A DNA stretch of 64,000 nucleotides from Nitrososphaeraceae archaeon. Its GTDB lineage: Archaea > Thermoproteota > Nitrososphaeria > Nitrososphaerales > Nitrososphaeraceae. Where the stretch lies: positions 44,646 through 108,645 of the forward strand of contig DATFEP010000014.1 in NCBI GenBank assembly GCA_035250975.1, written 5' to 3'. The notes under the pieces were generated by a model. That model was not told the DNA's origin and ran no database searches. It was given only the letters and a program-made list of their open reading frames with translations. Below, piece after piece: positions 3,425-64,000 of this stretch; the stretch's first letter is position 1; each line of letters starts with the position of its first letter. The translations under genes and the position numbers were made by a program.

Positions 3425-3516
3425 TGAATAGATCTCGGTGAGAGTTAAGATAATTTTCTAAAATAAAAATATTATAATTTTGATCTTATTTCATACAATT
3501 ACATATACAAAAAAAG

Positions 3517-3777: not shown

Positions 3778-3943
3778 AAGCAAAATATTCACTTGGGAAT
3801 ATTTATTCTATTCACTTCTGTTATCGTTTGACGTACTGAAGAGATTTATGTATATTTCAAAATCATAAATTAAAAACAATTAAATAAGTACAAGTAATTT
3901 ACTATCATCTATTCTCTTTAGGATTGAGGTTTAGTTTGTTAAT

Positions 3944-4231: not shown

Positions 4232-4534
4232 CTAATCAGATTATACATTCTGAATAATTTTTACAAAATAACACCGGGTTGAAACAATTCAATTTATAAT
4301 ATTGATATGAACTAAATTTTTTAGTATTCAATAACTAAATAAATTATCATTTAAAGAATTACTCATATAGAACTAATCCTGATATTATTAGAATTGGTTC
4401 TATAGTCGTAATCGATCATCTTGTTTTAACCTAATTAACGAAATGGAACTAACGCCAAATATTAATACATATTAGTTTTGTATTAATGAAAAATAAGAAC
4501 AACAATTATTAACTTTTTAAAACACATCTTTCGT

Positions 4535-5176
4535 ATGGATTCAAATACAAAAACAAAAACATTGAGTTATATTAATAAGAATTTTCTTCTTCCTGGAGAT
4601 CATATAGCTTATATTGAAGAGTTTGAGAGCGGTAAAGATACTTATGTATCCGAAGGTTCGGTCCGATCATCCGCTCTAGGATTAAGGAATTACAACTTAA
4701 AGCATAGGATGGTCAGCGTCGATAGAAAGAATAAAGCTAAATTCCCAAAAATTGGTGATGAAATTATAGGATATATTGAAATGTTATTCAGTAGCATGAT
4801 ATCCATAAAGATCTTATATTTAAATAATACAAAGTTAGGATCTGGCCTTTCAGCTATAGCTTCAACCAGAATATCTACTTCTGGTGGCTTTCCTAGGAGA
4901 GATAGAGAAAGGAGACCAAAATTAATTTACAGAGCAGGTGACATAGTTAGAGGACGAATATTTAGTTTAATGAATTCTTCATCACATGCAACTATTGACG
5001 ATAAAAATCTTGGAGTACTTTACTGTTTGTGCTATATTTGTGGAGGAGAAACTGTGAAGTTAAACAGCAGTATCAAATGCATTGATTGTGGAATGAGTGA
5101 GGAAAAGAAGTTAGCGTCGGATTTTGGTAAAGATGCATTATTAAGACTCGAGAACGTTAATCAGAATCGATCCTAA
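4535..5176 (+). CDS. csl4: exosome complex RNA-binding protein Csl4
   Basis: LPGD-IAYIEEF N-domain, S1 domain (PKIGD; GDIVRGRI), C-terminal zinc ribbon CYIC/CIDC...KKLASDFG. Confidence 0.92.
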   Translation: MDSNTKTKTLSYINKNFLLPGDHIAYIEEFESGKDTYVSEGSVRSSALGLRNYNLKHRMVSVDRKNKAKFPKIGDEIIGYIEMLFSSMISIKILYLNNTKLGSGLSAIASTRISTSGGFPRRDRERRPKLIYRAGDIVRGRIFSLMNSSSHATIDDKNLGVLYCLCYICGGETVKLNSSIKCIDCGMSEEKKLASDFGKDALLRLENVNQNRS

Positions 5177-5307
5177 ATAGATAAACAAAATTTTAATTGG
5201 TAAATATTTTTAATTCTTTTATCAATATTTTTTGTTAAAACAGATTATAGCACATTTCGGTAAATTTCTGAAAGTGATTAAAGGAAGTTATTATAATTTC
5301 TGGTGAA

Positions 5308-7575
5308 ATGATAATGGCAGATACAAATTATGAAATTTATAAAAAGATTAGAAAATTATCCACGTTACTTGTAATATTTATCTTTTTCACTGTTCTAACT
5401 TCTGGCATCATTCAAAATTATTCTACATTTGCACAAGTAGGTAAATTCGGAACATTTTCTGGTTCCAACTTTAAATATATTAAAGATTCAGAACTATTTC
5501 AATTAAAGGAATTTTCTGTTGCATCTTGGTTTAAAACAAATTCTACTAGTAAGTTTATTTCTTTCATTGTTGACAAAGGAGGCACAGGATCAGAAGCTGC
5601 TGGGGAGAATATGAATTTTGGGATGTTTTTGAATCCTCTTGGTCAAATTCAGGCGGGATTTGAAACATTAGACGGATCAAATCACTTCGTGACTTCTCAA
5701 AATAAGTTAAATGATAATAAATGGCATTATGGTACCGTCACGTACGACGGTTCAATCCTAAAATTATTTGTGGATGGAGTTCTCATAAATGATAAAAATA
5801 CCACTAATGCTGAACCTGATTATACTGGAAAAAACCGCATAACAATAGGAGCGAATTCTCTGTTTAAAGATAAGTTGTTTATTGGAGATCTAGACGAGGT
5901 TCGAATTTGGGATCGGGCTTTAACAAATGCAGAGGTCTATGATGGATTTTCAAAAAACAAGTTTAATCTTGAAGGTCAATTAGTTTTTGTATCCTTTGGA
6001 GATAACATTTTATGTAAACAAGAAAAACAGGTCAATGTGACATCGATAGGCAGTCAAGAAGAACATCCTGCAATAGATGCAATAGACGCAAATCAGTCGA
6101 CTAGATGGTCATATCCTGGTCTTAATTCTTGGATATTGTTAGACCTTGGCGGGGAGAAGGAAGTCTGTGATATAGATATATCATGGTACAAAGGTGATAA
6201 CAGAAAAATCAAATTTGTAGTTTCTGCTTCATCTGACGGTGAAATATTCAGCAACATTTTCTCTGAGACAAGCAGTGGTCTAACCGATGGTCCAGAAAGA
6301 TACGATCTTCCTGATATCAATACTCGATTCTTAAAATTAAGTATTATTGCAAATTCAATGAATGACTGGTCAAGTATTTCTGAGATAGATATCAATAATC
6401 CACGTGTTCCAGGTTCACCATCCCCATGTCAAGAATTATCTATATCTCCAAATGGTGTTACCTCCATAGGCAATCAAGCCACTCATCCTGAGCAAGATGC
6501 TGTTGATGGTGATTTGAATACCAGATGGTCCAATTTTGGATTAGGTTCATGGATAGATATAGACATAGGAAAAGAAGTAGATGTTTGTGATCTAGGGATA
6601 TCATGGTACAAAGGCGATGTTCGCAAACTAGATTTCTTAATTTCTGTGTCTTCAGACGGAAATGATTATAGACAAATATTTTCTGCTCGCAGCAGTGGAG
6701 ATACTTCAGAATTAGAAATGCATGATATACCAGACACAACTGCTAAATTTGTAAGGATCACGGTTACTGGAAATAGTATGAATAATTGGTCAAGCATATC
6801 TGAAATAAAGATATTCGGCAAAGACGTTCAATCAGATTCATTTCTATCTGTTTCACAAGTTGGAGTATTAACAAAGGTAATTAATAACAATGGTGGGGAT
6901 AAACAGCCTAAAGACTTTAATATCTCTGTAACAGGAATGCAGGCTATTCCAAATTCATTTTCCGGAAATCCAGATGGACAGATTGTATCATTGAAACCTG
7001 GAGATTATATTGTGAATGTTTCGCAGTCATTGGGGTACAAAACAATATATTCTGCAGGTTGCGTAGGTGTAGTTGGACCGGGCGAAAGTAAGGATTGTGT
7101 AATTACATTGGATGATATTAATCCTCCAACCCAACCCATAAATCAAACTTTGTCTGTACAACAAAAAGAATCTTTACAGAATGCAAACAATTCTTTACAG
7201 AAGATGAACAATTCTTTACAGAATGCAAACAATTCTTTACAGAAGATGAACAATATTAAGAGTGATGAAAGACGCCTAATATCAAATATACCAGAATTGA
7301 AGGTTATTGTAGAAGTATTAAATGTATACGGAGGAACGAAAAATCCTTCTGATTTCACACTGGTTATTAAAGGAGAAAATCCCCTACCCAATACCTTTAC
7401 AGGTAATTCCAATTTACAGATAGTGTCTATAAGTCCTGGAAAATATGAAGTTGAGGTAAAGGATCTATTAGGATATACGGTTAATAGAATTTCAGGATGT
7501 GATGGGATAATAGAAACCATAGATAAGACTTGTATAATAGAATTGATCGATAAGCCAAATAAAACAGGGGACTAA
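5308..7575 (+). CDS. secreted surface protein: LamG-like jellyroll + 2x F5/8 type C (discoidin/CBM32-like) + 2 Ig/prealbumin-like domains
   Basis: N-terminal hydrophobic leader; WHYGTVTYDG..LFVDG..GDLDEVRIWDRAL; two AIDA/AVDG..TRWS..WI.LDLG..SISEI repeats; two NNGG.K.P.DF-type modules. Confidence 0.85.
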   Translation: MIMADTNYEIYKKIRKLSTLLVIFIFFTVLTSGIIQNYSTFAQVGKFGTFSGSNFKYIKDSELFQLKEFSVASWFKTNSTSKFISFIVDKGGTGSEAAGENMNFGMFLNPLGQIQAGFETLDGSNHFVTSQNKLNDNKWHYGTVTYDGSILKLFVDGVLINDKNTTNAEPDYTGKNRITIGANSLFKDKLFIGDLDEVRIWDRALTNAEVYDGFSKNKFNLEGQLVFVSFGDNILCKQEKQVNVTSIGSQEEHPAIDAIDANQSTRWSYPGLNSWILLDLGGEKEVCDIDISWYKGDNRKIKFVVSASSDGEIFSNIFSETSSGLTDGPERYDLPDINTRFLKLSIIANSMNDWSSISEIDINNPRVPGSPSPCQELSISPNGVTSIGNQATHPEQDAVDGDLNTRWSNFGLGSWIDIDIGKEVDVCDLGISWYKGDVRKLDFLISVSSDGNDYRQIFSARSSGDTSELEMHDIPDTTAKFVRITVTGNSMNNWSSISEIKIFGKDVQSDSFLSVSQVGVLTKVINNNGGDKQPKDFNISVTGMQAIPNSFSGNPDGQIVSLKPGDYIVNVSQSLGYKTIYSAGCVGVVGPGESKDCVITLDDINPPTQPINQTLSVQQKESLQNANNSLQKMNNSLQNANNSLQKMNNIKSDERRLISNIPELKVIVEVLNVYGGTKNPSDFTLVIKGENPLPNTFTGNSNLQIVSISPGKYEVEVKDLLGYTVNRISGCDGIIETIDKTCIIELIDKPNKTGD
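7171..7254 (+). repeat. 42-bp perfect tandem duplication (built of 21-bp sub-units) encoding SLQNANNSLQKMNN x2
   Basis: TCTTTACAGAATGCAAACAATTCTTTACAGAAGATGAACAAT occurs twice in tandem. Confidence 0.9.
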
Positions 7576-7751
7576 ATAATTATTTTAAAATATTTCTGCT
7601 ATGGCTTTTTATGAATACTTTTAGAACTTTGAACCAGAAATTTAAAATTTGAAAAAGTAACAAATGTATTATATGTTAAAATTTTCTAAACTTTTGTTAC
7701 TTTCTGTATTAATACTAAAAGATATAAGATGTAAAGAGGAATATGCACTAA

Positions 7752-45919: not shown

Positions 45920-47320
45920 ATGGGCCAAGATCCCAACTCAATCAAGGTTTTCATTAGTTATTCTCATGAGGATAGTGAAAAAGCCAAACGTCTTTATTCA
46001 AAATTAAAGGAGTGGAACGTAGATCCTTGGTTTGATCAGGAATCGCTTAGAGCAGGTGAGAAATGGGAGGTAAAGATAAAGGAAGCAATCAAAAATAGTC
46101 AGTATTTTATACCAGTATTATCCAAAAATTCGACAGAGGAAACAGGATACGTATTAAAAGAGTTAAATGATGCCATAAAAATTCTTAAAGAACTTCCGGA
46201 CTCTAAGATCTATATAATACCTATACGTGTCGATGATTGCCAAGTACTAGAATCAACAGTTGAAGAACTTCAAAAAATTCAAGAACTTCATATTGTTGAC
46301 CTCTTTCCAGATGAAGAATGGAATAAAGGGTTTCAGAAAATATTGGATGCAATGGGAATTGAAGATAAACCAGATAAATTAGGTAAGGAATACTGGGAAA
46401 GTTTACTGACTGATATCGATAAAAAAGAATGTATTCCAGTCATAGGGGATGGATCGCTGGAATCCTATGATCGACAGGACGATGAAGCCTTTCTCACAAC
46501 TAAAGAAATCGCCTTGGAATTGGCAGAAAAAAATGACTACCCTTTGGATGATCCCTCTCAGTTATCGAAGGTTACTCAATATTTAGCAATACGTGAAAAT
46601 AATGAAATGTATCCAAAAAATGTAGTTAGTAATATGCTCGGTCGTTTAAAACCTCCCGATTTTGCAAATAAATATAGAAGATCTCTTCATGCAGTCCTTA
46701 CCAAGTTAAATTTGCCAATATACATTACTACCACTTACGATCTCTTCATGGAAGAAGCCTTGAAGAGTGATGGAAAGGAGCCTCACAGTGAGTGTTGTCG
46801 CTGGAATGATGACTTGCGTAAGTTGACAACATATGGAGGTTTTCCTTCCGTGTTTGATAAAAAATCAGGATATAAGATACCTACAGAAAAGGATCCACTA
46901 GTATATCATCTTCATGGGTCCATCGAGTATCCTAATTCCATGGTTTTGACCGAACGAGATTATTTCGATTTTGTTATTAATATGAATAAAATAGAAGATG
47001 AAAAAGTAATGCTACCATCGGTTCTTAGAACTAAAATAACACAATCTACACTATTATTTCTTGGATATCGCTTAGATGATATAGATTTTCGTTCAATATT
47101 TCAAGGAGCACTCAGCTTTTATGCAAGTACACGTGGTATGAAAAATAATTTTGTAATAATACAGCTTCCAGATATCGATGATTACGGTAAAAGAAAAAAG
47201 GTAATACAGTATTTAAGAGACAAATCTAAAAATATGTTTCATTTAATTGTTTACTGGGGAAGTATTGATGAATTTGTAGAAGAATTATTGAAAAATTGGG
47301 AAAAATTTAAAAATGGATAG
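45920..47320 (+). CDS. TIR domain + SIR2-like (SIR2_2) domain protein
   Basis: VFISYSHED..WFDQESLRAGEKW..KEL (TIR); CIPVIGDGS, YITTTYD, VYHLHGS, VLTERDY, LLFLGYRLDD.DF (SIR2). Confidence 0.88.
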   Translation: MGQDPNSIKVFISYSHEDSEKAKRLYSKLKEWNVDPWFDQESLRAGEKWEVKIKEAIKNSQYFIPVLSKNSTEETGYVLKELNDAIKILKELPDSKIYIIPIRVDDCQVLESTVEELQKIQELHIVDLFPDEEWNKGFQKILDAMGIEDKPDKLGKEYWESLLTDIDKKECIPVIGDGSLESYDRQDDEAFLTTKEIALELAEKNDYPLDDPSQLSKVTQYLAIRENNEMYPKNVVSNMLGRLKPPDFANKYRRSLHAVLTKLNLPIYITTTYDLFMEEALKSDGKEPHSECCRWNDDLRKLTTYGGFPSVFDKKSGYKIPTEKDPLVYHLHGSIEYPNSMVLTERDYFDFVINMNKIEDEKVMLPSVLRTKITQSTLLFLGYRLDDIDFRSIFQGALSFYASTRGMKNNFVIIQLPDIDDYGKRKKVIQYLRDKSKNMFHLIVYWGSIDEFVEELLKNWEKFKNG

Positions 47321-50300
47321 CTCTGGAGAATCATCCCAATCTTCCAATGGAGAGAACAAAAATTATTATGAACCTTACATAGGACCCCGCGCTTTCGGTA
47401 GAACTGAGGATGATGAGGAACGATTCTTTGGAAGAGACGAGGAAACTCAAGAGATTGTTGCTCTTATTTCTTCTCATAAGCTCGTTTTGATTTATGCCCA
47501 ATCAGGGGCAGGAAAGACATCCATAATGAATGCTGAGGTTATTCCAACTTTAGAAAGATATGGATTTATGGTTCTTCCAGTGACCAGAGTGAGAGTTTCT
47601 TCCGATATTGTTTATGACCAGTCATCATATGATAATTCGATATATAAGACACAAATATCAAATGTTTATATTTTTAATGCTCTTACAAGTCTCAAATCAG
47701 ATACAGACCCGCAATTATTCAAGAATAAAACATTATCTGAATTTTTAAAAGAATATTTCCCTTCTAACAAAGAAAAGAATGGAAAGAACCGTCCACAAGT
47801 ATTAATATTTGACCAGCTCGAAGAAATTTTTAGCATTTTTCCAAAGAATTGGAAAGAGCAAAGAGAAGATTTCTTTAACCAAGTAACAAATGCCTTGAAT
47901 GATATTATTCCACTTCAAGTTGTATTTATTATTAGAGAAGACTATTTAGCTCAATTAGATACTTATAGGGATCTCCTTCCTGAAAAATTGAGACCACGTT
48001 TTAGACTCGAACGACTGAATCAAGATTCGGCTTTATCAGCAGTTCAAGGTCCATTAAAAAAAATTCCAAAAGATTTCATGAAAGAAAAAAAAGAGGATGT
48101 GGAAAGAGAAATAAAAAGATTAATCAAAGAGTTGATGAAAATTCAAGTTGAAGATTCACTAGGTAGGACACATCAGGTAGAAGGTGAATTTATAGAACCA
48201 ATACAGCTACAGGTTGTTTTTAGGAGATGGTGGAAAAACAAACAAAGCCTTCATGACAAAAATAACGAAGACAAAATGGTTGATATATTTGAAGTAGATA
48301 AAGCGTTGGAAGATTTCTATGATGAAGCCATTCATCAATGTCTTCAAACTGGAACATCTGAGGATGAAATTAGAAAATGGTGTGAAGAAAAATTAATTAC
48401 TTCTAGTGGAACTCGTAGTATTGTTCATCGAGGTTTACAGGATACTGAAGACTTGAAAAATAACGTCATCGAAATTCTTGAAAATAAATATTATTTGATT
48501 AGGGGAGAATGGCGTGCTGGAGCAAAATGGTATGAACTTGCACATGATCGATTAATTAATCCAATAAAATCATCAAATCAGAGATGGAGAAGAGAGCAGG
48601 AATTAAAAAAGAGATCCACGATTAAAAAAGTTGCTATACCATCAATAATAACAGCTGTTATGATAGGCATAGCTCTTTCTATGTATTTTGCACCTATTCA
48701 GTATGATATAAATTCCTTTGAGGATATTAAGTTGAGTGAAACTCCATACATACTGGCTGTGAATTCAGGTACTGGAGCTGTATATGCTTCTAATGCTCCT
48801 GATACTAACATAACTGTGATAGATGGAGAAAGTGACAAAGTTACTAAATATATTCAGGTAAAATATAAACCGTTCGACATAGAAGTTGATCCGAAGAGGG
48901 ATACATTATATGTGACACATCCAGAGAGCGATAAAATATCTGTTATAGATTTGAAAAAAGACCAGGACAATTTTAAATACCTAGACTCCAAGGGACGTCC
49001 TTCTTTTATGGGGTTAGATTCTAATAATTCCCTATTATACGTAACTAACTTTGCAGGTAGCACTGTGTCTGTTATTAATTTAACTACAAACAATGTGCAG
49101 GATACTGTGAAGGTGGGAAGAAATCCTATGGGCATAGACATAGATTCCGGGACGGCATATGTAACTAATTCTAGGGATAACACTGTGTCTGTTATAGATT
49201 TAACTACAAACAATGTGCAGGATACTGTGAAGGTGGGAAGAAATCCTACAGATATAGAGATAGATTCGGGTAAGGCATATGTAACTAATTGGATAGACAA
49301 TACTGTGTCTGTTATAGATTTAACTATAAATAAGGTTCAACATACTGTGAATGTGGGAAGAAATCCTACAGATATAGAGATCAATCCTTCTTCTAGTAAG
49401 GTATTTGTAGCTCATTCTGGAGACACAATCGTGTCTGTTATAGATCCACAATTAGATATCGTAGTGGGAACATTGAAAGTAGGCGAAGGAAAGCGACCCA
49501 TTGCATTAGGAATAAATTCAGTTCAAAATATATTATATGTAGCTCGTCATAACGATAACTTCATAAGAGCTATAGACATGAAGGACCATCCGTCAACAGA
49601 AGTTTTGTCCAATATCCCAGTAGCCACTCACCCTTCTGGAATAGCAATTGCGACATCTCAAGATAATAAAACCAAAACGGTATACGTAACTAACAAAGGC
49701 TCCAATAGTGTAAGTATCATAGATGGAATTACAAACATGGTTAAAAAAGTTCTTCAGGTTGGACAAGAGCCCAGCGATATAGATATTAATTCTAACACTA
49801 AAAAATTATATGTGTCTAATTCACTTTCAAACAGTATATCTGTTATAGACATAGGCAAGGAAGAAGTTGAGTATACGATAGATTCCATCGGTAAAAGCCC
49901 AATCAAACTAGCAGTTGACGATAATAAAGATTTAATATATGTGATTAACAACGGCTCTAACAACGTATCTGTTATAAATGGAACTACAAGAGAAGTTATA
50001 GGAGATATAAAAGTGAAAGATATGCCTACAGATATTGTTGTCGATTCCAATAATCATCTAGTATATGTAACTAATTCTGATAATTCTTCTTCTTCTGTAT
50101 CTGTTATAAATGGAACTACAAGAGAAGTTATCGGAGACATACCTATGAATCCTAATAATACAAAATCTGTTGGAGATAAACCTACAGATATTCTTGTTGA
50201 TTCAAAGGACAAGCGAGCATATATAGTTACGCAGGATGGTAAAATCGTCAAGCTAGAAACGCAAAAAATTACAGATAAGAATAGCCAGTTTAACTATAAT

Positions 50301-50450
50301 ATAACGGATTATGTTACAATTGTTGCCGATAATTTTGGTAAACTTCCTGGTTTGGATTTAAATTCGGAAATCGCTTTAAATTCAGAATCTGATGAAATTT
50401 ATATCACTAGTATGGAAAAGAATGTTATGTACATTCTTCATACGAAGTAA
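47313..50450 (+). CDS. STAND (nSTAND1-like) P-loop ATPase + single TM + YVTN/YncE beta-propeller
   Basis: PYIGPRAF..FFGRDEE, Walker A YAQSGAGKTS, Walker B VLIFDQLEE, IREDY, PIQLQVV, YELAHDRL; TM VAIPSIITAVMIGIALSMYF; about 13-14 YVTN..VSVID blades. Confidence 0.9.
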   Translation: MDSSGESSQSSNGENKNYYEPYIGPRAFGRTEDDEERFFGRDEETQEIVALISSHKLVLIYAQSGAGKTSIMNAEVIPTLERYGFMVLPVTRVRVSSDIVYDQSSYDNSIYKTQISNVYIFNALTSLKSDTDPQLFKNKTLSEFLKEYFPSNKEKNGKNRPQVLIFDQLEEIFSIFPKNWKEQREDFFNQVTNALNDIIPLQVVFIIREDYLAQLDTYRDLLPEKLRPRFRLERLNQDSALSAVQGPLKKIPKDFMKEKKEDVEREIKRLIKELMKIQVEDSLGRTHQVEGEFIEPIQLQVVFRRWWKNKQSLHDKNNEDKMVDIFEVDKALEDFYDEAIHQCLQTGTSEDEIRKWCEEKLITSSGTRSIVHRGLQDTEDLKNNVIEILENKYYLIRGEWRAGAKWYELAHDRLINPIKSSNQRWRREQELKKRSTIKKVAIPSIITAVMIGIALSMYFAPIQYDINSFEDIKLSETPYILAVNSGTGAVYASNAPDTNITVIDGESDKVTKYIQVKYKPFDIEVDPKRDTLYVTHPESDKISVIDLKKDQDNFKYLDSKGRPSFMGLDSNNSLLYVTNFAGSTVSVINLTTNNVQDTVKVGRNPMGIDIDSGTAYVTNSRDNTVSVIDLTTNNVQDTVKVGRNPTDIEIDSGKAYVTNWIDNTVSVIDLTINKVQHTVNVGRNPTDIEINPSSSKVFVAHSGDTIVSVIDPQLDIVVGTLKVGEGKRPIALGINSVQNILYVARHNDNFIRAIDMKDHPSTEVLSNIPVATHPSGIAIATSQDNKTKTVYVTNKGSNSVSIIDGITNMVKKVLQVGQEPSDIDINSNTKKLYVSNSLSNSISVIDIGKEEVEYTIDSIGKSPIKLAVDDNKDLIYVINNGSNNVSVINGTTREVIGDIKVKDMPTDIVVDSNNHLVYVTNSDNSSSSVSVINGTTREVIGDIPMNPNNTKSVGDKPTDILVDSKDKRAYIVTQDGKIVKLETQKITDKNSQFNYNITDYVTIVADNFGKLPGLDLNSEIALNSESDEIYITSMEKNVMYILHTK
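49041..49390 (+). repeat. three near-identical 120-bp tandem units (40-aa propeller blades)
   Basis: units begin GTAACTAA at 49041, 49161, 49281 and share ACTGTGTCTGTTAT..ATTTAACTA..GTGGGAAGAAATCCTA. Confidence 0.9.
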
Positions 50451-53020: not shown

Positions 53021-54406
53021 TTAATCTATCTTTTTCTGGATTGCTTCTTCTATTTTTTTTGTCCATGGTACAAGTTCATTCCTTTTTTCTCTTGCCTTTC
53101 TTATGGTACGTAAATTTCTCAAGGTAGTTTCACCTTCCCATCTTTCCCTTAAATGAGATAATGCTTTTGAAAGGAAATTAAAAGATGTCTCTTTATTTTT
53201 CGCAAGAATTGCCAGTTCTAATAGAGTGGCATAATCCCAGTAATCAGGCTTACCCTTTGTAATTTTTCGTTCGACAGAATATTTAACCACAGGAATGAGA
53301 TCCATTATTTTTGGATCTGGATTCTTTTTTATCTCCATCAAAGTAACAGCGTTAATCCCGGGATATGTGTCCCTCCAATCACTTTCAAATCCTTTTAGAT
53401 ATGCATCAATAGCTTGATCTAGATATGCATCTGATAAGTAATAGGATTCATTATTGTCTTTGTCATTTCCTTTTTGTCTTTCTTCCTTGTTGTATTCTTT
53501 TTCCCATCTATCTTTATAGACACGACCCAAAATACCATAGGTTTCACTACTAGGTCCTTTTTTTTCTATAAGCGATAACAAAATCCTTTCTGCTTCCTCA
53601 CTATGGCCTGCCCTATTAAGAGCAAAAGCATACTGCTCTTGAACAAGAGTAGTGGAATACAAAGGTTCCGGCATTAAAGTAACAAATTCAGCCATCTCCT
53701 CCCATTCTTCTTTTTTCTTTGCTAATGCTCTGTAAGAAAGAAAGATATCTATTATTACTCCGGCTTCTTGGTTCTTGATATCCTTTAATGATAAAACAAA
53801 ATTTCTCAGATCAATAATATTCTTTTCTCTTCGTATTTGTGCTAACTGTTTCTTTAATTCCTCAGAATAATTTACTCTTTCTCGAAAAACATCAGTTTTT
53901 ATGTGTTGAATATCTGGAAATCCTTCAACTAATTGAAATATGGGGCTATCTGTATTAGGATTTTGTGCTTCAATCAGTCTTCTTTTTAAAATCTCTTTTG
54001 ACTTATTGTTTGCTTGTTGATCAGGTTTGCCTGAATAAGAATCAAGTTTATACGGGATAGCATGAAGAGGAGCTATATCAAATGGTAGTTGTTTTGTTCC
54101 TTCTGCAAACAACAAGACTGTACTATAGGGACGTACTGCATGTCTAACTCCCAATTCATAAAATACATTAGGATTAGCAGTGGTAAGATCTACAACAGCA
54201 TATTCACATAAAATTAATCTTTCAAACATTGGTTTATGAATTACTCCACCTACTTTCTCTTCGTCTGCTCTAATTGGTTTTAGACCTGCCTCTTCAATAG
54301 CTGGAAAAATAAGGTTGTTATAAACAGAATCAAAATCTATCAAAAGCCCACCATTATCAGCCTTTTTACCAAACGGCATGAGAACAAAACATAGTGGGGA
54401 AGACAC
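53021..54406 (-). CDS. DUF4071/MAP3K TRAFs-binding family protein (deoxyribohydrolase-like N-domain + TPR sensor)
   Basis: CFVLMPFG, RADEE..GG.IH..MF, DLTTANPNVFYELGVRHA, Q.AFALNR, ETYGILGRVYKD, YPGINAVTL, DYWDYAT. Confidence 0.88.
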   Translation of the reverse strand: MSSPLCFVLMPFGKKADNGGLLIDFDSVYNNLIFPAIEEAGLKPIRADEEKVGGVIHKPMFERLILCEYAVVDLTTANPNVFYELGVRHAVRPYSTVLLFAEGTKQLPFDIAPLHAIPYKLDSYSGKPDQQANNKSKEILKRRLIEAQNPNTDSPIFQLVEGFPDIQHIKTDVFRERVNYSEELKKQLAQIRREKNIIDLRNFVLSLKDIKNQEAGVIIDIFLSYRALAKKKEEWEEMAEFVTLMPEPLYSTTLVQEQYAFALNRAGHSEEAERILLSLIEKKGPSSETYGILGRVYKDRWEKEYNKEERQKGNDKDNNESYYLSDAYLDQAIDAYLKGFESDWRDTYPGINAVTLMEIKKNPDPKIMDLIPVVKYSVERKITKGKPDYWDYATLLELAILAKNKETSFNFLSKALSHLRERWEGETTLRNLRTIRKAREKRNELVPWTKKIEEAIQKKID

Positions 54407-54727
54407 TATAGTCTATAACAATATGGATGATAAAAAGATATTTAATAAATAAAAACAATATTAAAAAGAGGTAATACGTGTTACAAGATAATAGTTTAAA
54501 AATCTATTAGTAGATACTGACAATTACTGAATTAAATTGTTAATAAAAGTAGAATTTATTTCTTTTATGTCTTTTAAATATAAAATGGAAAATTCTTGAT
54601 AACTCTAATGTATAACAAGAAGATGCGATCAAAATTTTGGAAGGTACAATTAAGAGGCTTTTAATTGAATTTCCCAAATTTTTAAAGAATTTCACAAAAA
54701 AAATAAATACTTTAAAACAAGATAAAT

Positions 54728-55936
54728 ATGGATCTGAAAAAAATTTTTGTGTCATATAGCAGGGCTGATGGAGGTGATTTTGCGGATCATATCCAAGAAC
54801 ACTATGAAAAAGATGGGCATCAGGTTTTTATTGATTTTTACGATATAAAACCAGGAGAAGACTGGTCAGAGACTATAAGAAATTCAATAACTGAATCTGA
54901 TTTTGTAGCTGTAATTGTAACTCGTTCAGCACTGAGAAGTACAGAAGTGGAAAAAGAAATTTTGGAAGCAAGAAAACAAAATAAGACTATAATCCCATGT
55001 AGATATAAAGGAATCTTGTGGACTGATTTAAAGTGGGATTTGAATAAATTGCAAGGTTTCCAATTTGATAATAAAAATTCTTTGATTAGACAACTCGATG
55101 ACATAATTTTTAGTGAAAATAGATCTGCTATTCCAAGTTTACACGAAGAGAAGGAAGAAGAACTAGGAATTCGTAATCAGGAGTTTAGACGTAAAAAATT
55201 AATAAAAATGATATCTATAACAATTATTTCAATCATTGCAATTACAGGAGTTGTTATTGGAATCGTAGGTTTTACGCCTCAACCTTCACCCGGTACGATA
55301 GATAGTGGGACCAATGGGACCAATAACGAAGCAACAATTCAGCCTGATGTAGATACTTTATTTTCCTCTGCACTCTCATCTTATAAAATAGGGGAATATT
55401 CTGACGCTGTATCTTCTTTTGATAAGGTACTTCAAATAGAGCCAAACAATGTCACAGCTCTATTCTTGAAAGGCTCTTCACTATTTAAAGATGCAAAGTA
55501 TCCTGACGCTGTATCTTCTTTTGATAAAGTAATTAACATCAATGCAAATAATACAGACGCCTTGTTATACAAAGGATTATCCCTTTACAATTTAGAAAAA
55601 TACAATGATGCTATAGCTGAATTTAACAGAATACGTGCCGTAGAACCAACAAACACAGACGCCTTGCTATACAAAGGATTATCTCTTTATAATTTAGTGA
55701 GATACAATGAGGCTATAGCTGAATTTAACAGAGTACTTGCAGTAGAACCAACAAACACAGACGCCTTGCTATACAAAGGATTATCTCTTTACAATTTAGA
55801 GAGATACAATGAAGCAGTTGCATATTATAATAGAGTATTAGAAATAGATCCAAATAACATAAATGCAACAAAAGAAAAAGAGAAAATCCAACAAATCCAA
55901 CAAAAAGAATCAATTATAAATAGCAGCAAAAAATAA
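54728..55936 (+). CDS. TIR domain + single TM + TPR repeat protein
   Basis: IFVSYSRAD..VFID..IKPGEDW..KEI (TIR); RRKKLIK then a ~22-aa hydrophobic helix; 5 TPRs, the last three near-identical at DNA level (102-bp period). Confidence 0.88.
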   Translation: MDLKKIFVSYSRADGGDFADHIQEHYEKDGHQVFIDFYDIKPGEDWSETIRNSITESDFVAVIVTRSALRSTEVEKEILEARKQNKTIIPCRYKGILWTDLKWDLNKLQGFQFDNKNSLIRQLDDIIFSENRSAIPSLHEEKEEELGIRNQEFRRKKLIKMISITIISIIAITGVVIGIVGFTPQPSPGTIDSGTNGTNNEATIQPDVDTLFSSALSSYKIGEYSDAVSSFDKVLQIEPNNVTALFLKGSSLFKDAKYPDAVSSFDKVININANNTDALLYKGLSLYNLEKYNDAIAEFNRIRAVEPTNTDALLYKGLSLYNLVRYNEAIAEFNRVLAVEPTNTDALLYKGLSLYNLERYNEAVAYYNRVLEIDPNNINATKEKEKIQQIQQKESIINSSKK

Positions 55937-56219: not shown

Positions 56220-59200
56220 CTATTGTTTTGCATTATTATTATTCATTATTTTATTAAAAACGCTTAATTCTTTTTCAGTTAATATGTCTGTTAAGTTAGC
56301 ATTTATTTTCAGAGATTTCTCATAATATAACTTGGCCTCATCAGTTTTACCCAGGTTATATAGGATGAATGCCATAGTACTTTGGAAAATGTCGTTATTA
56401 TCAGGATTAGATAAAGCTGCTTTTTCTATAACTGAAAGTGCTTCACCATATCTTTCCAATTCAGCTAAAGCAACGGCTTTCCCGTTTAGTGCACGAAGAT
56501 CTGATGGCCATATAGATAGGACTTTATCATAGTACTGTAGAGCTTCATCATATCTTTGTAGATGATCCAAAACACTGGCTTTGTTATATGTTGCACTAAC
56601 ATCTAATGGCTCAATAGCTAAAATTTTATCATAGTTCTCTAATGCTTCATCATATCTTTTGAGATCTTTTAAAACAAGGGCTTTGCCCTTTAGTGCAAAA
56701 ACATCCTGAAGATCTATAGCTAGGACTTTATCATAGTACTGTAGAGCTTCATCAAATTTTTGTAGACTTTGTAAAACAAGGGCTTTGCCCATTAGTACAC
56801 TAATACGTGTTGGATCTACAGCTAGTGCTTTATGATAGTACTGTAGAGCTTCATCATATCTTTGTAGATCATCTAAAATACTGGCTTTGTTAGAAAGTGC
56901 ATAAACATGTGTTGGATCTACAGCTAGGACTTTATCATAGTACTGTAGAGCTTCATCATATCTTTGTAGATTTTCTAAAACAACGGCTTTGCCATTTAGT
57001 ACACTAATATGTGTTGGATCTATATCTAATGCTTTATCATAGTACTGTAGAGCTTCATCATATCTTTTTAAATGTTGTAAAGCACTGGCTTTGTTATACA
57101 ATGCACTATCATATTTTGGATCAATAGCTAGTGCTTTATCGTAATACTCTAATGCTTCATCATATCTTTGCAGATCTTTTAAAACAACGGCTTTGCCATT
57201 TAGTACACTAGTATGTGTTGGATCTATATCTAATGCTTTATCATAGTACTGTAGAGCTTCATCATATTTTTTTAGCTCTTGTAAAACAACGGCTTTATTA
57301 TACAATGTAGTAACACGTAATGGCTCAATAGCTAAAATTTTGTCATAGTACTCTATAGCTTCATCATATCTTTGCAAATTTTTTAAAGCAAGGGCTTTCC
57401 CATTTAGGATACTGATATCCAATAGATCTATGGCTAGGGCTTTATCATAGTACTCTACAGCTTCATCATATCTCTTTAAATCTGATAAAGCATTGGCTTT
57501 GCCGTTTAGTGCACTAACATCTGATGGTTCTATAGATAGCACTTTATCAAAGTACTCTACAGCTTCATCATATCTCTTTAAATCTTGTAAAAGAGTGGCT
57601 TTATCAATGAGTATCCTAACATCCAATGGTTCTATTGCAAGTACTTTATCATAGTACTGTAGAGCTTCATCATATCTTTGCAAATTTTTTAAAGCATATC
57701 CTTTATCATTTAGTGCACGAGCATTTGATGGTTCTATCGCTAAAATTTTGTCAAAGTACTCTATAGCCTCATCATATTTTTTTAGATCTAGTAAAACAGT
57801 GGCTTTGTTACCCAGTGCATTAAGATATTTTGGATCTATAGATAATATCTTATCAAAGTACTCTATAGCTTCGTCATTTCTTTGCAGATTTTTTAAAACA
57901 GTGGCTTTATCATTTAGGGCATTAACATTTGATGGCTCGATAGCTAAAATTTTGTCAAAGTACTCTATAGCCTCATCATATTTTTTTAGATCTAGTAAAA
58001 CAGTGGCTTTGTTGCCTAATGCATAAATATGTAAAGGCTCTATTTTAAGTACTTTATCATAGTACTCTATAGCCTCATCATATCTTTGCAGGTTTTTTAA
58101 AACAAATCCTTTATCATTTAATGCATAAATATTTGAAGGCTCTATCGCTAAAATTTTATCATAGTTCTCTAAGGCTTCATCATATCTTTTCAGATCTAGT
58201 AAAACATGGGCTTTGTTACCCAGTGCATTAAGATGTTTTGGATCTATAGATAATATCTTATCATAGTTCTCTAAGGCTTCATCATATCTTTTCAAATCTT
58301 TTAAAGCAACGGCTTTATCATTTAGTGCATTAACATTTGAAGGCTCTATTTTAAGTACTTCGTCATAAAACTCTATAGCCTCATCATACCTTTGCAGATT
58401 TTTTAAAATATATCCTTTATCATTTAATGCATTAACATTTGTTGGTTCTATAGCAAGGATTTTATCATAGTTCTCTAAGGCTTCATCATATCTTTGTAAG
58501 AAACCGAAGATAATGGCTCTGTTATGTAATGCATAAATATGTGAAGGCTCTATCGCTAGGACTTTATCAAAGTACTCTATAGCCTCATCATATCTTTGCA
58601 GATTTTTTAAAATATATCCTTTATCATTTAGTGCATAAATATTTGAAGGCTCTATTGAAAGTACTTCGTCATAAAACTCTATAGCCTCATCATATTTTTG
58701 CTGTTCATTAAAAACCATTGCTTTGTTATATAGTGCAAGAACATATGTTGGCTCTATCGCTAGGACTTTATCAAAGTACTCTATAGCCTCATCATATTTT
58801 TTTAGCTCTTGTAAGACTAAACCTTTATTATTTAGTGCATAAATATGTGAAGGCTCTATTTTAAGTACTTTATCAAAGTACTCTATAGCCTCATCATATC
58901 TTTGCAGGTTTTTTAAAGCAAGACCTATGCCATTCAAGGCATTGATATATGTTGGCTCTATCGCTAGGACTTTACCATAGTACTCTATAGCTTCGATATA
59001 TCTTTGTAGATTCTGTAAAATATTGGCTTTGTTATAAAGTGAATTAACATATGTTGGCTCTATCGCTAGGACTTTATCATAATACTCTATAGCTTCATCA
59101 TATCTTTGTAGATTCTGTAAATAAATACCTTTATCATTTAGTGCATTAACATTTGAAGGATCCAGTACAAGTACTTTATCAATATACTCTATAGCTTCAT

Positions 59201-59424
59201 CATATTTTTGTTGCTCATAAAATAGAAGCTTTGTGATGAAATGTGCCTATGTCTGTTAAATTTATTATTGATGATGCATTTTGAGATTCACCAAAAGTAG
59301 GAAGAAATAGGTAAAAAGATAACGAAAAAAAAAAAATAAAAATCATATTAAAAAAATAAAAATAATTGATTTTTGTTAATGATACAGTAGTGGATGGACC
59401 TGTTTTAAGAATAATCAAATACAA
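56220..59424 (-). pseudogene. large secreted TPR-array protein (about 28 repeats) split by a frameshift near 59220; downstream ORF 56220-58937 intact
   Basis: 59215-59424 encodes a signal peptide ending HHKASIL*; the next frame reads YEQQKYDEAIEY... without a stop into the 905-aa TPR ORF; 102-bp repeat periodicity. Confidence 0.8.
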
Positions 59425-61278: not shown

Positions 61279-62655
61279 TTGTCCGAAAAACCAACAAACT
61301 ATTATACAGCATTATGTTTTGTTGATATGCCATTTGGTAAAAAGATAGATCCCATCAGTGCTGTTGAGATTGATTTTGATCATATATATGAATCAGCTAT
61401 CAAACCAGCAATAGAAGATGCAGGCTTAGAAGCGTTAAGAGGTGATGAAGAAAAAACTGGTGGTATTATTCATACTGCAATGTTTGCTCGGCTTATACTT
61501 GCAGAATTTGTTGTTGCAGATTTAACTCTGGCCAATGCAAATGTGTTTTATGAACTTGGGATTCGTCATGCAGCAAAGCCTTATACCACGGTATCAATTT
61601 ATGCAAATTCCCATCAATTACCTTTTGACGTTACTATGATACGGTCTATTAACTACAAATTAGAGAATGGACGACTAAGTGATAATGAAATAGAGAAGCT
61701 AAGAAAAGAAATAGGAAAGAGACTCACGGAACCAATGCAAGGACAAGCAACAAAAGATAGTCCTTTATTTCAGCTAATTCCTCAATTTCCCGGAATCGAC
61801 TTACCGAATGAAGTAACAGATGCCTTCAAGGATCGAATAAAACATGAAAAGAAATTCCAAGAAAAATTAGACAATGCAAAAAACAACAAGAATTCAAAAG
61901 AGCAAAAGCGTAATGCTCTTTTACAAATTCAACAAGATTTGGGAAATTTAAAAAGGGTTCAACGTAATGTGTTGGTAGATCTTATGTTTTCATTTCGTTC
62001 TGTAGAGTGTTTCGACGAAATGGCACAACTTTGTGAAGAATTTCCTGATAGTCTTAAGAATACCGATATAGTTCGCCAACAATGGGCTTTTGCATTAAAC
62101 AGAAGTATAGACAACCAGCCAAGTAATAGACAAAAGGCTATTTCAATTCTTAAAGACCTGATAAAAGAACATGGTCCTGACCCAGAAACTTTTGGTATTA
62201 TGGGGCGTGTGCACAAAGATCGATATAAGGAATACAAAGAAAAGAAAGACATTCGTGCATCTTCAGCCCTAGATGATGCAATAGACGCATATACAAAAGG
62301 ATTCATGTCCGATCCTCGTAATTATTATCCTGGTATAAACGCTATAACATTACTTATGGAAAAAGGAGATGATGAATCATTTAAAAATGCCAAAGAATTA
62401 ATTCCGTTGGTAAGTTTTGCAGTATCTCGTGTTGGAGGTATCAGTTCTAGTAATTATTGGGATGTAGCAACTATTCTTGAATTATCTTGCATTAACAATG
62501 ACTGGACCATGGCAAAACGTGTACTTCCTAAAGTACTCGATTTGGGTAAAGAATCTTGGATGCTCAAGACTACTTCTGCCAATCTAAATATGCTAAAAAA
62601 AGCTACATCCAGCCAAGACCTAGATGAAATTATAAGATATTTGGACCAAATCTAA
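61279..62655 (+). CDS. DUF4071/MAP3K TRAFs-binding family protein, second paralog
   Basis: CFVDMPFG, RGDEEKTGGIIH, ADLTLANANVFYELGIRHA, QQWAFALNR, ETFGIMGRVHKD, YPGINAITL, NYWDVAT. Confidence 0.88.
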   Translation: MSEKPTNYYTALCFVDMPFGKKIDPISAVEIDFDHIYESAIKPAIEDAGLEALRGDEEKTGGIIHTAMFARLILAEFVVADLTLANANVFYELGIRHAAKPYTTVSIYANSHQLPFDVTMIRSINYKLENGRLSDNEIEKLRKEIGKRLTEPMQGQATKDSPLFQLIPQFPGIDLPNEVTDAFKDRIKHEKKFQEKLDNAKNNKNSKEQKRNALLQIQQDLGNLKRVQRNVLVDLMFSFRSVECFDEMAQLCEEFPDSLKNTDIVRQQWAFALNRSIDNQPSNRQKAISILKDLIKEHGPDPETFGIMGRVHKDRYKEYKEKKDIRASSALDDAIDAYTKGFMSDPRNYYPGINAITLLMEKGDDESFKNAKELIPLVSFAVSRVGGISSSNYWDVATILELSCINNDWTMAKRVLPKVLDLGKESWMLKTTSANLNMLKKATSSQDLDEIIRYLDQI

Positions 62656-63449
62656 ATAAAAAGAGAATTGAGAAAAGATATAGAAAATCTAGTGAAAACA
62701 TTAAACCAAAAGAGTTTTGACTCAATTTCGGCTTTTCCATCCTTTTGGGGAAAAGGTAAGTATATGATCATTTATTACAATTTTGGCAAATATAATAGTG
62801 GGACACCACTAAAGAAAATAAATTTAACATTTTAATATCTTTTTACCAAATAGGAACAAATATTGTCTAATCGTTAAGACATATCGTTAATAAATGAATT
62901 ATAAATATTTTCATGATGGATATGAGATAATAAAGCTAAAAAGTTCCTGACAATTGAATGTTGATTTCATATTTAGCAATTTAATTATGACGTCAATATA
63001 AAAAATTGTTTATTTATATTTTATAGTTTATGTAGAGATTTTTTGGTTTATATCTAAAAGAATGATCAATCTCCAGAATTCAACATATATGATAAATATG
63101 TGTATATATATAGGCGAAACTTAATTTGTGATTTTTAAAAATATGGAAATTTAAAGTAGCTATAAAAATTATAAAGATAGAAAAAAATAAATTTAAAAGA
63201 AAAACTAATTGTAGGTCACAATTCAAATTAACAAGAATCTGTCACCAAAGAAAAAATTGAAGAAAAAGTCTATATAAAAAGTTTTATAAAAATATGAAAG
63301 GAGTATCTAATAATAATCAATCTTTTAGGATTGTCATGTATCTATTATTGAAGATAGATAGTGTTTTTATAACATTTGTATGTATGCCATTTATAGAAGA
63401 AAATCATATTAACTATTTTAACCTCTATTCTTTTATTATAATATTGAAG

Positions 63450-64000
63450 ATGTCTACCATAAATATTGATCATTACATTAAATCCAGATTAGAAGAGCAA
63501 ATTAGTTGGTATGATCAAAAAGCAAATTATGATAAATTTAGATATCGAATATTTCAAATTATTGTTATAATAGCCAGTGCTCTAATCCCTCTCATTAATC
63601 TAACTTCTTCTGCTTTCACTTGGGCTCAACATGGTGCACTAATAACTTCTGCGATTTTAGGAAGTATCATCACCATAATAACTGCATTTGTAGCAATGGA
63701 AAAATATTATGAAACATGGATCCTATACCGAGCAACTGCAGAATCACTAAAACGAGAAAAATTTTTCTATGAAAATAATGCAAATTCATATCATAATCTA
63801 ATAAAGGAAGAGAAAGATAGAATATTAGTTGAAAGAGTTGAATTATTACTTTCTTTAGAGAACTCAAAGTTCTTTGCATTACAACAGCAACAACCAGAGC
63901 AACAGCAACAACCAGAGCAACAGCAACAACCAGAGCAACAGCAACAACCAGAGCAACAGCAACAACCAGAGCAACAGCAAAAACCAGAGCAACAGCAACA
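63450..64000 (+). CDS. SLATT-domain (DUF4231) two-TM protein, 3'-truncated by the window end
   Basis: absent from the ORF track; YIKSRLEEQISWYDQKA..FQIIVIIASALIPLI..LGSIITIITAF..YETWILYRATAESLKREKFFY..LVERVE. Confidence 0.88.
   Translation, partial: MSTINIDHYIKSRLEEQISWYDQKANYDKFRYRIFQIIVIIASALIPLINLTSSAFTWAQHGALITSAILGSIITIITAFVAMEKYYETWILYRATAESLKREKFFYENNANSYHNLIKEEKDRILVERVELLLSLENSKFFALQQQQPEQQQQPEQQQQPEQQQQPEQQQQPEQQQKPEQQQ
63882..64000 (+). repeat. 18-bp tandem repeat (CAACAGCAACAACCAGAG)n encoding QQQQPE
   Basis: at least 6.5 copies, one variant (QQQKPE), continues past the window edge. Confidence 0.95.

Follow-up and report, generated by a model that had tools for sequence, protein, structure and literature searches.

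In a 64,000-nucleotide stretch of contig DATFEP010000014.1 from a Nitrososphaeraceae archaeon (positions 44,646 to 108,645 of the forward strand; this whole stretch is referred to as the window, and all coordinates are its own), the gene at 54728..55936 on the forward strand encodes a protein that joins an N-terminal TIR domain, a single transmembrane (TM) helix and an array of tetratricopeptide repeats (TPRs). We give an even chance to the reading, drawn from sequence, that this protein is a receptor-like, single-pass TIR NADase of type II topology (N-terminus in, C-terminus out) belonging to a prokaryotic conflict or immunity system. The gene is an accessory, island-borne gene with a sporadic distribution. 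The parts of the gene and protein on which this reading is built are the following.

54728..55936, forward strand: TIR-TM-TPR gene, 402 residues, ATG start, stop codon at 55934..55936 (open reading frame (ORF) list, Pfam, 27 homologues)
54737..55108, forward strand: TIR domain, residues ~4-127, predicted cytoplasmic (Pfam TIR_2, SARM1 match, AlphaFold2 (AF2) fold)
54956..54958, forward strand: codon of Glu77, the putative catalytic glutamate (alignment A1, alignment to the HKEI of SARM1)
55187..55207, forward strand: basic juxtamembrane stretch RRKKLIK, residues 154-160, a predicted topology signal of the cytoplasmic side (sequence, K/R bias)
55208..55273, forward strand: single TM helix, residues 161-182, MISITIISIIAITGVVIGIVGF, with a small-xxx-small motif (hydropathy, alignments)
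55274..55339, forward strand: Pro/Ser/Thr/Asn-rich linker TPQPSPGTIDSGTNGTNNEATIQPDVD, residues 183-204, predicted extracellular stalk (sequence)
55340..55933, forward strand: five TPRs, C-terminal capping helix and Gln-rich tail, residues 205-402, predicted extracellular (Pfam, AF2, Foldseek)
55553..55812, forward strand: 102-bp tandem duplication, 2.5 copies, TPR3 to TPR5 (Tandem Repeats Finder)

A word-indexed search with residues 1-200 as the query returned 27 proteins, across which the same frame and architecture are kept. A chance ORF at 54728..55936 was ruled out by the many homologues that conserve both. Two 151-nt contigs of one RNA library match 54857..55162 with 2 and 7 mismatches, which is no proof of transcription.

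Pfam TIR_2 (PF13676) matched residues 6-115 with an E-value of 1.4e-20 and 74.4 bits against a curated cut-off of 28 (77.6 bits in a scan of the organism's own genome), which places the protein in the TIR domain superfamily, and an AF2 model calculated from a 17-row alignment (mean pLDDT 79) gave this region a beta-alpha fold at a pLDDT of ~90. The closest solved structures by sequence were SARM1 TIR domains (E 4.7e-4). In that alignment the VEKEI of the query lies opposite VHKEI, and its BB-loop Gly is paired with the Gly of the SARM1 'LEAGKF'; the aligned SARM1 glutamate is presumably the catalytic residue E642. The EVEKEI motif occupies residues 73-78 of the archaeal protein, where E77 is invariant in all 18 sequences of alignment A1 and E75 is found in 17 of the 18, while G43, the BB-loop glycine, is invariant in alignments A1 and A2. 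Two sequence features of a TIR NADase, a candidate catalytic Glu in the alpha-C region (E77) and a BB-loop glycine (G43), are present.

For TIR enzymes studied previously, the conserved catalytic Glu is needed for NAD+ hydrolysis, the AbTir BB-loop glycine mutant G174A is inactive, and the active site is built by two TIR domains across the BB-loop interface, only upon self-association (10.1101/2022.05.07.491051; for this and the papers cited below, our statements refer to the accessible parts of the source). According to the same work, all TIRs that make cyclic ADPR products carry an aromatic residue four positions before the Glu, and activity is reduced in AbTir W204A and SARM1 W638A (10.1101/2022.05.07.491051). 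No aromatic residue stands four positions before E77 in the archaeal protein: the position is E73 here and E, H, Y, N, K, V or D in the aligned relatives, so that the WxxxE pattern is absent. Because this aromatic residue is missing, we expect the TIR to be a self-association-dependent hydrolase, probably giving ADPR and nicotinamide rather than a cyclic isomer, and not a cyclase. The domain matched the TIR of Thoeris weakly (Pfam ThsB_TIR, 21.4 bits against a cut-off of 21.2; PADLOC ThsB1, E 4.8e-10). We do not assign the gene to Thoeris; no SLOG or ThsA family was found among the neighbour proteins scanned, and the nearby SIR2_2 gene is fused to a TIR of its own.

The TM helix MISITIISIIAITGVVIGIVGF has a 19-residue Kyte-Doolittle mean of 2.69 and is the sole segment above 1.6 in the 402-residue protein. 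Its 15-residue flanks hold four K/R on the N side versus none on the C side. The helix is retained in 16 of the 18 sequences of alignment A1, and its small residues are conserved in alignment A2 (G/A at residue 174 in 17 of 17 rows and at residue 178 in 15 of 17). Directly behind it, the linker TPQPSPGTIDSGTNGTNNEATIQPDVD contains an NGT sequon at residues 196-198, and homologues carry comparable P/S/T/N linkers in the same place. When the K/R residues flanking the helix were summed over 38 single-TM relatives, the totals were 159 on the N side versus 24 on the C side; since the N flank was the richer in 38 of 38, the predicted N-in orientation is a property of the family. The opposite arrangement, with the TPRs inside and the TIR outside, was ruled out by the charge bias against it in all 38 proteins and by the absence of an N-terminal signal peptide.

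Pfam TPR families cover residues ~205-380 (TPR_1 and TPR_2 with E-values near 1e-28; TPR_2, E 3.2e-29), and the AF2 model resolves ten paired helices, or five TPRs (208-373), followed by a capping helix at 378-401, with a pLDDT of ~95. A Foldseek search with the full-length model yielded TPR structures only and no TIR-specific structural match; its top matches were a consensus TPR (E 3.9e-8, rmsd 1.3 A over 178 columns), MamA and the OGT TPR. The C-terminal half is a TPR repeat protein in the usual sense of a tandem 34-residue helix-turn-helix solenoid. The array also appears to be changing quickly. Tandem Repeats Finder reported 92% matches within the 102-bp duplication, and in the best register 96 of 102 bases are identical. 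Adjacent 34-residue units at least 80% identical to each other were found in 15 of 20 homologues examined, at differing positions, and adjacent pairs are 100% identical in proteins P0002, P0007, P0008 and P0022. The close orthologues P0004 (369 residues) and P0007 (403 residues) are one TPR unit apart. One further record, P0001, is 100% identical to the window's protein over residues 1-200 and has 368 rather than 402 residues, lacking TPR4. This difference may be a repeat collapse in assembly, because the 49,471-bp contig of P0001 also carries an nSTAND1 protein (P0297) that matches the product of 47313..50450 with 100% identity over the part searched and is one propeller unit shorter (1005 versus 1045 residues); otherwise it would be true copy-number variation. 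Logan contigs of public runs break inside the 102-bp repeats and give no decision between five and four TPRs.

These results bear out most of what an earlier note on this DNA had claimed from the letters alone: an N-terminal TIR with the conserved Glu of EVEKEI, the basic stretch RRKKLIK followed by one hydrophobic helix, a Pro/Thr/Asn linker with an NGT sequon, and five TPRs with 102-bp duplications. Its view that the protein is a type II membrane protein with the TPRs on the outer side holds as a prediction, on the K/R counts given above and on the exported-type domains that follow the helix in paralogues, described below. Two of the checks that it proposed were carried out. The topology prediction, from hydropathy and charge bias, returned N-in and C-out, and a survey of TIR-TM-repeat proteins in Nitrososphaeraceae recovered the gene in 10 of 151 family genomes.

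The 151 genomes of this survey are species representatives, and at an E-value of 1e-5 or better the gene was found in 5 of 18 genera; a limit of 1e-12, applied to the class, gave 4 genomes with the gene out of 301. None of the orthologues in species-representative genomes exceeded 54% identity. The majority of the 27 relatives from the word-indexed search are TIR-TM-TPR proteins. Four of them (P0013-P0016) have NHL propellers behind the same TIR and TM, one (P0023) has a C-terminal domain without assignment, and P0011, with a CHAT domain, P0012 and P0017 have no TM. A HMMER search of 1.84 billion cluster representatives gave 8465 matches at an E-value of 1e-3 or better, and the best 150 were classified as follows.

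N-terminal TIR and one TM, at least 80 residues after the TM: 26
N-terminal TIR and one TM, shorter tail: 12
N-terminal TIR and several TMs: 5
N-terminal TIR, no TM: 71
Several TIR domains: 27
TIR not N-terminal: 6
Partial: 3

For the 26 longer single-TM representatives, of which 23 were scanned with Pfam and three were known from the relatives search, the domains after the TM were these.

TPR: 7 of 26
NHL: 4 of 26
NHL and Big_9: 1 of 26
Big_9/cadherin: 3 of 26
PKD and Big_9: 3 of 26
PsbP_2: 1 of 26
No Pfam match: 7 of 26

PKD, Big_9, cadherin-like and PsbP-like domains are typical of exported proteins. Listed by such domains (PKD, Big_9/cadherin, PsbP_2), exported-type sequence follows the TM in 8 of the 26 paralogous cluster representatives, and none of these domains was found in the 22 TM-less members scanned. 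The latter carry TPR in eight cases (one with NHL), NHL in two, CHAT in two, caspase in two, and Hsp70, pYEATS and an NDT-like domain in one each, with nothing recognised in five. On sequence, the protein is predicted to be of the receptor-like type II single-TM kind, with its N-terminus in and a variable extracellular sensor. In one 653-residue relative (locus L108, 602..2590, forward strand), a single chain holds the TIR, one TM and a composite ectodomain of a Big_9/cadherin-like stretch and an NHL propeller; the Big_9/cadherin-like stretch was called from its resemblance to Big_9 domains that Pfam confirmed in L093 and L099.

The architecture is, as far as sequence can tell, not confined to archaea. 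Among bacterial loci fetched with the TIR profile (L007-L082), 42 of the 73 best TIR ORFs carried the TIR at the N-terminus, followed by one hydrophobic segment and no fewer than 80 residues beyond it; they came from Anaerolineae and other Chloroflexota, Alphaproteobacteria, Leptolyngbya, Bacteroidota and others. When 22 of the 42 were scanned, they showed WD40, TPR, FGE-sulfatase, PD40, TSP3 or VgrG3-C domains, and three showed TIR only. The predicted topology is less certain in these proteins, since their hydrophobic peaks and charge bias are weaker.

The location of the TPRs was addressed most directly by a cassette that the TIR protein shares with a different kind of receptor, represented in the window by a second gene.

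47313..50450, forward strand: nSTAND1 NTPase - single TM - beta-propeller gene, the second receptor-like protein of the island (Pfam, hydropathy)

The TM of this nSTAND1 protein lies at residues ~440-458. In 114 of the 120 best homologues the NTPase is followed by exactly one hydrophobic segment, whose flanks hold 725 K/R on the N side versus 57 on the C side, the N flank being the richer in 114 of 114. In some of these homologues TPRs take the place of the propellers, and these TPRs are the cassette of the TIR protein: residues 189-388 of the latter are 62% identical to residues 481-681 of P0356 (E 2e-74), and residues 171-395 are 59% identical to P0333 (E 7e-93). P0356 consists of nSTAND1 (15-418), TM (428-446), TPR (461-684) and two Big_9/cadherin domains (686-875); as it has no second TM, its TPR cassette must lie in the same compartment as the Ig-like domains. 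With a threshold of 55% identity, eight TIR-TM-TPR and three STAND-TM-TPR proteins contain the cassette, and none of the 13 TM-less TIR-TPR proteins compared does, their best match being 39%. This sharing of the cassette, with the Ig-like domains of P0356 and its absence from TM-less proteins, provides together with the charge bias the strongest argument on location, and makes it very probable that the TPRs lie outside the membrane. What we regard as new here, at the level of sequence, is that one TM-TPR cassette stands behind both TIR and STAND heads in Nitrososphaeraceae. The homologues also point to a large type II 'transmembrane STAND' receptor family in Nitrososphaeraceae, with propeller, TPR, Big_9 or FHA C-termini.

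In the mechanism that we propose, a SARM1-like TIR with an intact catalytic glutamate would face the cytoplasm, followed by a signal-anchor helix right after RRKKLIK, and a Pro/Ser/Thr/Asn stalk would hold the five-TPR solenoid outside, under or at the S-layer. Such a topology in vivo would allow the TPR ectodomain to bind an external ligand, which may be a component of a virion or other invader or a perturbed component of the envelope. Ligand binding would draw monomers together, possibly aided by the G/A174-xxx-G/A178 motif of the helix, and TIR-TIR contacts in the resulting cluster would complete the composite active site. NAD+ would then be hydrolysed, the probable products being ADPR and nicotinamide, and an immune role would follow through growth arrest or an abortive response. 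The sensor could be retuned by rapid gain and loss of 34-residue TPR units.

Several points weigh against this reading. E73 occupies the position of the Trp whose mutation lowered activity in AbTir and SARM1 (10.1101/2022.05.07.491051). The topology has a hydropathy scan and the positive-inside rule, computed with our own script, as its entire basis, and the AF2 model is silent on the arrangement of helix and domains because residues 131-204 have a pLDDT below 50. TPR and NHL repeats also occur in the same TIR clade without a TM (L085, L105, L106, L107, L114 and L128), and since TM-less members carry them, these repeats evidently work in the cytoplasm as well. In a TIR-domain tree that is poorly resolved, and in which some 'TM-less' entries may be fragments, TM-bearing and TM-less proteins are fully interleaved, with 30 state changes versus 30-37 in five shuffles. 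Membrane anchoring alone may be the selected feature, because 12 of the 38 single-TM members are short-tailed and a further five representatives are multi-TM. Sequons number 1.94 per 100 residues after the TM, 0.80 in TM-less C-termini and 0.58 in TIR domains, with observed/expected ratios of 1.27, 1.19 and 1.05; the excess after the TM is mostly composition and offers weak support for an outside location.

The region from 45.9 to 64 kb of the window, in which the gene lies, is a conflict island. Besides the two receptor-like genes already described, it comprises the following features.

45920..47320, forward strand: TIR-SIR2_2 gene (Pfam TIR_2 E 7.5e-26, SIR2_2 E 9.7e-25)
53021..54406, reverse strand: DUF4071 (PF13281, MAP3K_TRAF_bd) and TPR-S gene with a DNPH1/Rcl-like N-terminal domain (Pfam E 1.4e-43, 2.3e-26)
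54407..54727, no strand: divergent intergenic region, 321 bp (ORF coordinates, Tandem Repeats Finder)
56220..58937 and beyond, reverse strand: giant TPR gene, island member
61279..62655, forward strand: second DUF4071 and TPR-S gene (Pfam)
63294..64000, forward strand: DUF4231/SLATT effector gene with two TMs, running off the window (Pfam DUF4231 E 1.1e-22, SLATT_1 E 3e-9)

The TIR-SIR2 gene overlaps the nSTAND1-TM-propeller gene by 8 nt. The 2.49-Mb genome contains three TIR_2 genes, two of them inside the island, and two of the three are TIR-SIR2 genes. The pair of TIR-SIR2_2 and nSTAND1-TM-propeller genes occurs twice in the genome, at 45920..50450 and at L180 (G000:C54) 2899..7613, with the 8-nt overlap. 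A TTG at 58937 is the listed start of the giant TPR gene, but its frame stays open with intact TPRs to 59246; at 59215..59424 on the reverse strand, in another frame, a 69-residue ORF has a hydrophobic, signal-like start and lies beside a long poly-T run. The stretch 56220..59424 (reverse strand) may represent a protein of ~29 TPRs, exported or anchored, whose gene has suffered a frameshift or been mis-assembled. At its end within the window, the SLATT/DUF4231 protein repeats the hexapeptide QQQQPE perfectly, and the coding DNA there is an 18-bp tandem array. The intergenic region contains a 20-bp direct repeat, TTTTAAAAGAATTTCACAAA, at 54659..54698 (two copies, 80% matches), 30-70 bp upstream of the TIR gene start, which may be a promoter or operator element.

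Across this 321-bp spacer the TIR gene is divergently transcribed from the DUF4071 gene at 53021..54406 (reverse strand), as the earlier note had stated. That note had further supposed that the DUF4071 protein could receive the product of the TIR, a supposition for which we found no support beyond recurring co-location. Both PF13281 matches of the 2.49-Mb genome lie in the island. Outside this genome, the TIR clade forms 25 groups at 90% identity, of which ten have at least 4 kb of sequence; DUF4071 occurs in five of these ten non-redundant loci and SLATT in four, but the independent events are fewer than these counts suggest because several groups are close kin of the window. Neither DUF4071 nor SLATT was present in the TIR-TM-Big_9 loci examined. 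The pattern suggests that the gene at 53021..54406 is an associated gene, without implying a partner role.

DUF4071 shows homology to ASK1/MAP3K5, in the N-terminal part of that kinase (8qgy; E 3e-6), and the protein at 53021..54406 matched the PADLOC 'Effector TIR' model with an E-value of 3.9e-8. The N-terminal ~140 residues of both DUF4071 proteins (53987..54406, reverse strand; 61279..61728, forward strand) form a conserved domain with the motifs CFVxMPFG and NVFYELGxRHA. A profile of this domain matched the Rcl/DNPH1 nucleotide N-glycosidases with an E-value of 1.3e-3 and the YELG aligned, compared with 0.095 for PycTIR and 0.27 for ASK1; Rcl/DNPH1 enzymes are 2'-deoxynucleoside 5'-phosphate N-hydrolases. 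The domain fits the 'DRHyd' effector class named by Kaur et al. 2021 eLife (PMC8195603), so far as its sequence goes. An AF2 model of it from a 7-row alignment (pLDDT 52.5) was too poor and was not used. DRHyd followed by TPR-S is what we take to be an ASK-like module.

The family is also far more widespread than the TIR gene: among 8000 candidates scored, 7869 matched DUF4071, versus 27 for the TIR gene, and proteins labelled Nitrospirota and Deltaproteobacteria match the 461-residue DUF4071 protein at ~60% identity. DUF4071 pairs more often with a DUF4231/SLATT gene than with a TIR gene. In L106, L107 and L127, which are unrelated contigs, a DUF4071 and TPR-S gene adjoins DUF4231/SLATT in divergent, convergent or tandem orientation. 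This suggests a two-gene DUF4071/SLATT module, of which the accessible parts of the literature consulted gave no description. From its sequence, DUF4071 looks like a self-contained sensor-effector of N-glycosidase type that travels with SLATT and TIR genes. A role for it as receiver of a TIR product is unsupported because of its Rcl/DNPH1-like domain, its own TPR-S, its far larger family, its pairing with SLATT and a TIR that lacks the aromatic residue.

The island and the diversity of the family bring other explanations into play, which have to be weighed against a type II receptor with an enzymatic TIR. It is rather unlikely that the protein is a membrane-tethered TIR effector, whose helix and TPRs only localise or scaffold it at the envelope or S-layer and whose activation comes from inside; the trigger could then be, for example, a STAND, DUF4071 or SLATT protein encoded nearby, or membrane-located phage components. 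The short-tailed and multi-TM representatives (for example L094, L112, L118, L124 and L126) would suit such an effector, as would an island dense with other sensor-bearing proteins and the presence of MamA, presumably a self-assembling scaffold TPR protein, among the top structural matches. A mere anchor, however, has no need of a rapidly duplicating TPR array, and the swaps with PKD, Ig, cadherin, NHL and PsbP domains and the sharing of the cassette with STAND proteins would be left unexplained. A broader idea we judge unlikely as a whole: an exchangeable surface-receptor module, made of anchor helix, stalk and TPR, Ig or propeller domains on a TIR or STAND head, would sense virions or competitors outside before genome entry, and the clustered TIR would burn NAD+ or recruit TIR-SIR2. 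The heads of such a module, TIR (TLR-like) or STAND NTPase (NLR-like), would be germline-encoded in soil ammonia-oxidising archaea and, if true, prokaryotes would have invented receptor-to-adaptor TIR signalling independently. The narrower proposal of a receptor with an adaptor, in which the TIR would be a homotypic recruiter nucleating the island's TIR-SIR2 and the SIR2 would destroy NAD+, seems to us distinctly unlikely. Two of the genome's only three TIR genes are TIR-SIR2, one lies 7.4 kb upstream, TIR-SIR2 also stands beside TIR-(TM-)TPR genes on L100 and L107, and the aromatic residue before the Glu is missing. The invariant E77, however, argues for catalysis, both TIR-SIR2 genes are operonic with nSTAND1-TM-propeller genes of their own (8-nt overlap; the second copy on C54), and of the 10 non-redundant loci of at least 4 kb just two contain TIR-SIR2.

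A Thoeris-like scheme, in which the TIR would make an NAD-derived messenger that activates the DUF4071 N-glycosidase, the SLATT pore or both, we regard as improbable. It draws on the recurrence of DUF4071 and SLATT in TIR-clade loci given above, on the placement of both DUF4071 genes of the genome in the island, on the divergent TIR and DUF4071 genes, and on the naming of SLATT after its association with nucleotide-signalling domains (Pfam description). Against this, DUF4071 brings a TPR-S sensor of its own and begins with a domain of enzyme-like character, and it showed no recognised domain for binding a messenger; its family is vastly larger than that of the TIR, with ~60% identity across archaea and bacteria, no DUF4071 gene occurs in the TIR-TM-Big_9 loci, and the missing aromatic residue argues against cyclic ADPR products. 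Less probable still is a non-immune function in cell-cell recognition, adhesion or envelope assembly, or as a 'eukaryote-like' repeat protein with the TIR as an interaction module. TPR, Ig-like and TIR-like proteins are indeed listed as eukaryotic-like in a sponge thaumarchaeal symbiont (PMC6790972), and the sources name homologues after generic TPR assembly factors; yet the catalytic Glu is conserved, the distribution is sporadic, the gene sits in a conflict island, and this TIR clade also has caspase, CHAT, SIR2 and STAND modules as fusion partners.

To our knowledge, the sensing of infection is cytoplasmic in nearly all prokaryotic TIR systems characterised so far. If the type II receptor reading is true, a TIR enzyme would here be wired to an extracellular, fast-evolving repeat sensor, amounting to surveillance from outside the membrane, and no other prokaryotic protein would come as close to a Toll-like receptor in function. 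The occurrence of its cassette on STAND NTPases of the same organisms points to modular receptor evolution in archaea. The host group consists of globally important nitrifiers whose virus defence is poorly studied, and the small size of the protein (402 residues) makes it a tractable experimental entry point.

TIR effectors joined to repeat sensors and type II receptor-like immune proteins are both already known as kinds. Bacterial TIR+TPR clusters are listed in Atlas, and soluble TIR-TPR, TIR-WD40 and TIR-FGS proteins and the two-gene BcTir/Tpr (10.1101/2023.05.26.542521, in its accessible part) likewise combine a TIR effector with repeat sensors. Unlike the archaeal protein, soluble TIR-TPR proteins have no TM between TIR and TPRs, and the TPR subtype found here is absent from the 13 TM-less proteins compared. 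Domains linked to a TM and placed outside have been described in other conflict systems (PMC7159879, PMC8195603), and periplasmic sensors are predicted for some STAND targets (PNAS 2024; PMC10907252). In ammonia-oxidising archaea, TIR-like proteins are named merely as 'eukaryotic-like' in the accessible part of one report (PMC6790972). We found no description of a prokaryotic TIR-TM-ectodomain protein in the searchable full-text literature, which omits most subscription papers and supplements.

The nearest published relatives in layout are the bacterial PCTM and TIR-ParA systems, in which receptor-like type II single-TM ParA proteins bear extracellular TPR, pentapeptide, cadherin, Ig-like or peptidoglycan-binding sensors that are proposed to intercept invasion signals outside the membrane (10.64898/2026.10.19.760177). 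As far as the accessible part of that source goes, these proteins resemble ours in that a constant cytoplasmic domain at the N-terminus is followed by one TM and an extracellular sensor that varies, but their head is a ParA NTPase and their TIR a separate upstream gene, whereas here the TIR is itself the head and the host is an archaeon. Pfam gave no ParA or P-loop family match in the archaeal protein, which sets it apart from ParA-headed receptors. The nSTAND1-TM-repeat proteins come closer in another way: they belong to the same organisms and island and are likewise laid out as type II proteins, and some of them share the TM-TPR cassette (59-62% identity), but their head is a STAND NTPase, and they have no TIR of their own, a TIR-SIR2 gene preceding them in two loci of the genome. 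PASTA-type Ser/Thr receptor kinases (PknB) also have an N-terminal cytoplasmic catalytic domain, one TM and extracellular repeats, and are activated by dimerisation. Their head is a kinase, and the likeness to the similar type II layout of the archaeal protein is functional only. SARM1 and AbTir share the catalytic Glu and the BB-loop Gly, and self-association-dependent activity is expected in common; they have a Trp before the Glu and ARM-SAM domains or a coiled coil, whereas the archaeal protein lacks the aromatic residue and is predicted to be membrane-anchored through a TM-TPR module.

The earlier note had likened the architecture to that of Toll-like receptors, and this stands as an analogy, with the reservations that the domain order is inverted and that the ectodomain is made of TPRs and not leucine-rich repeats (LRRs). 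Toll-like receptors are type I proteins with an N-terminal LRR and a C-terminal TIR, whereas the archaeal protein is predicted to be type II with an N-terminal TIR followed by TPRs; no LRR family was among its 24 Pfam matches, and we do not count it as a Toll-like receptor. The TIR of Toll-like receptors is of the scaffold type, whereas the archaeal TIR is, by its conserved Glu, of the SARM1-like enzyme type, and we know of no adaptor for it. In cnidarian relatives of Toll-like receptors, Ig domains take the place of LRRs (PMC7075850), a replacement that resembles the Ig-like domains of the archaeal paralogues. Toll-like and IL-1 receptors are likewise single-pass proteins, with a solenoid or Ig ectodomain outside, a TIR inside and presumed ectodomain-driven TIR association. 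The two are homologous in the TIR fold only, and by this analogy their likeness is one of function.

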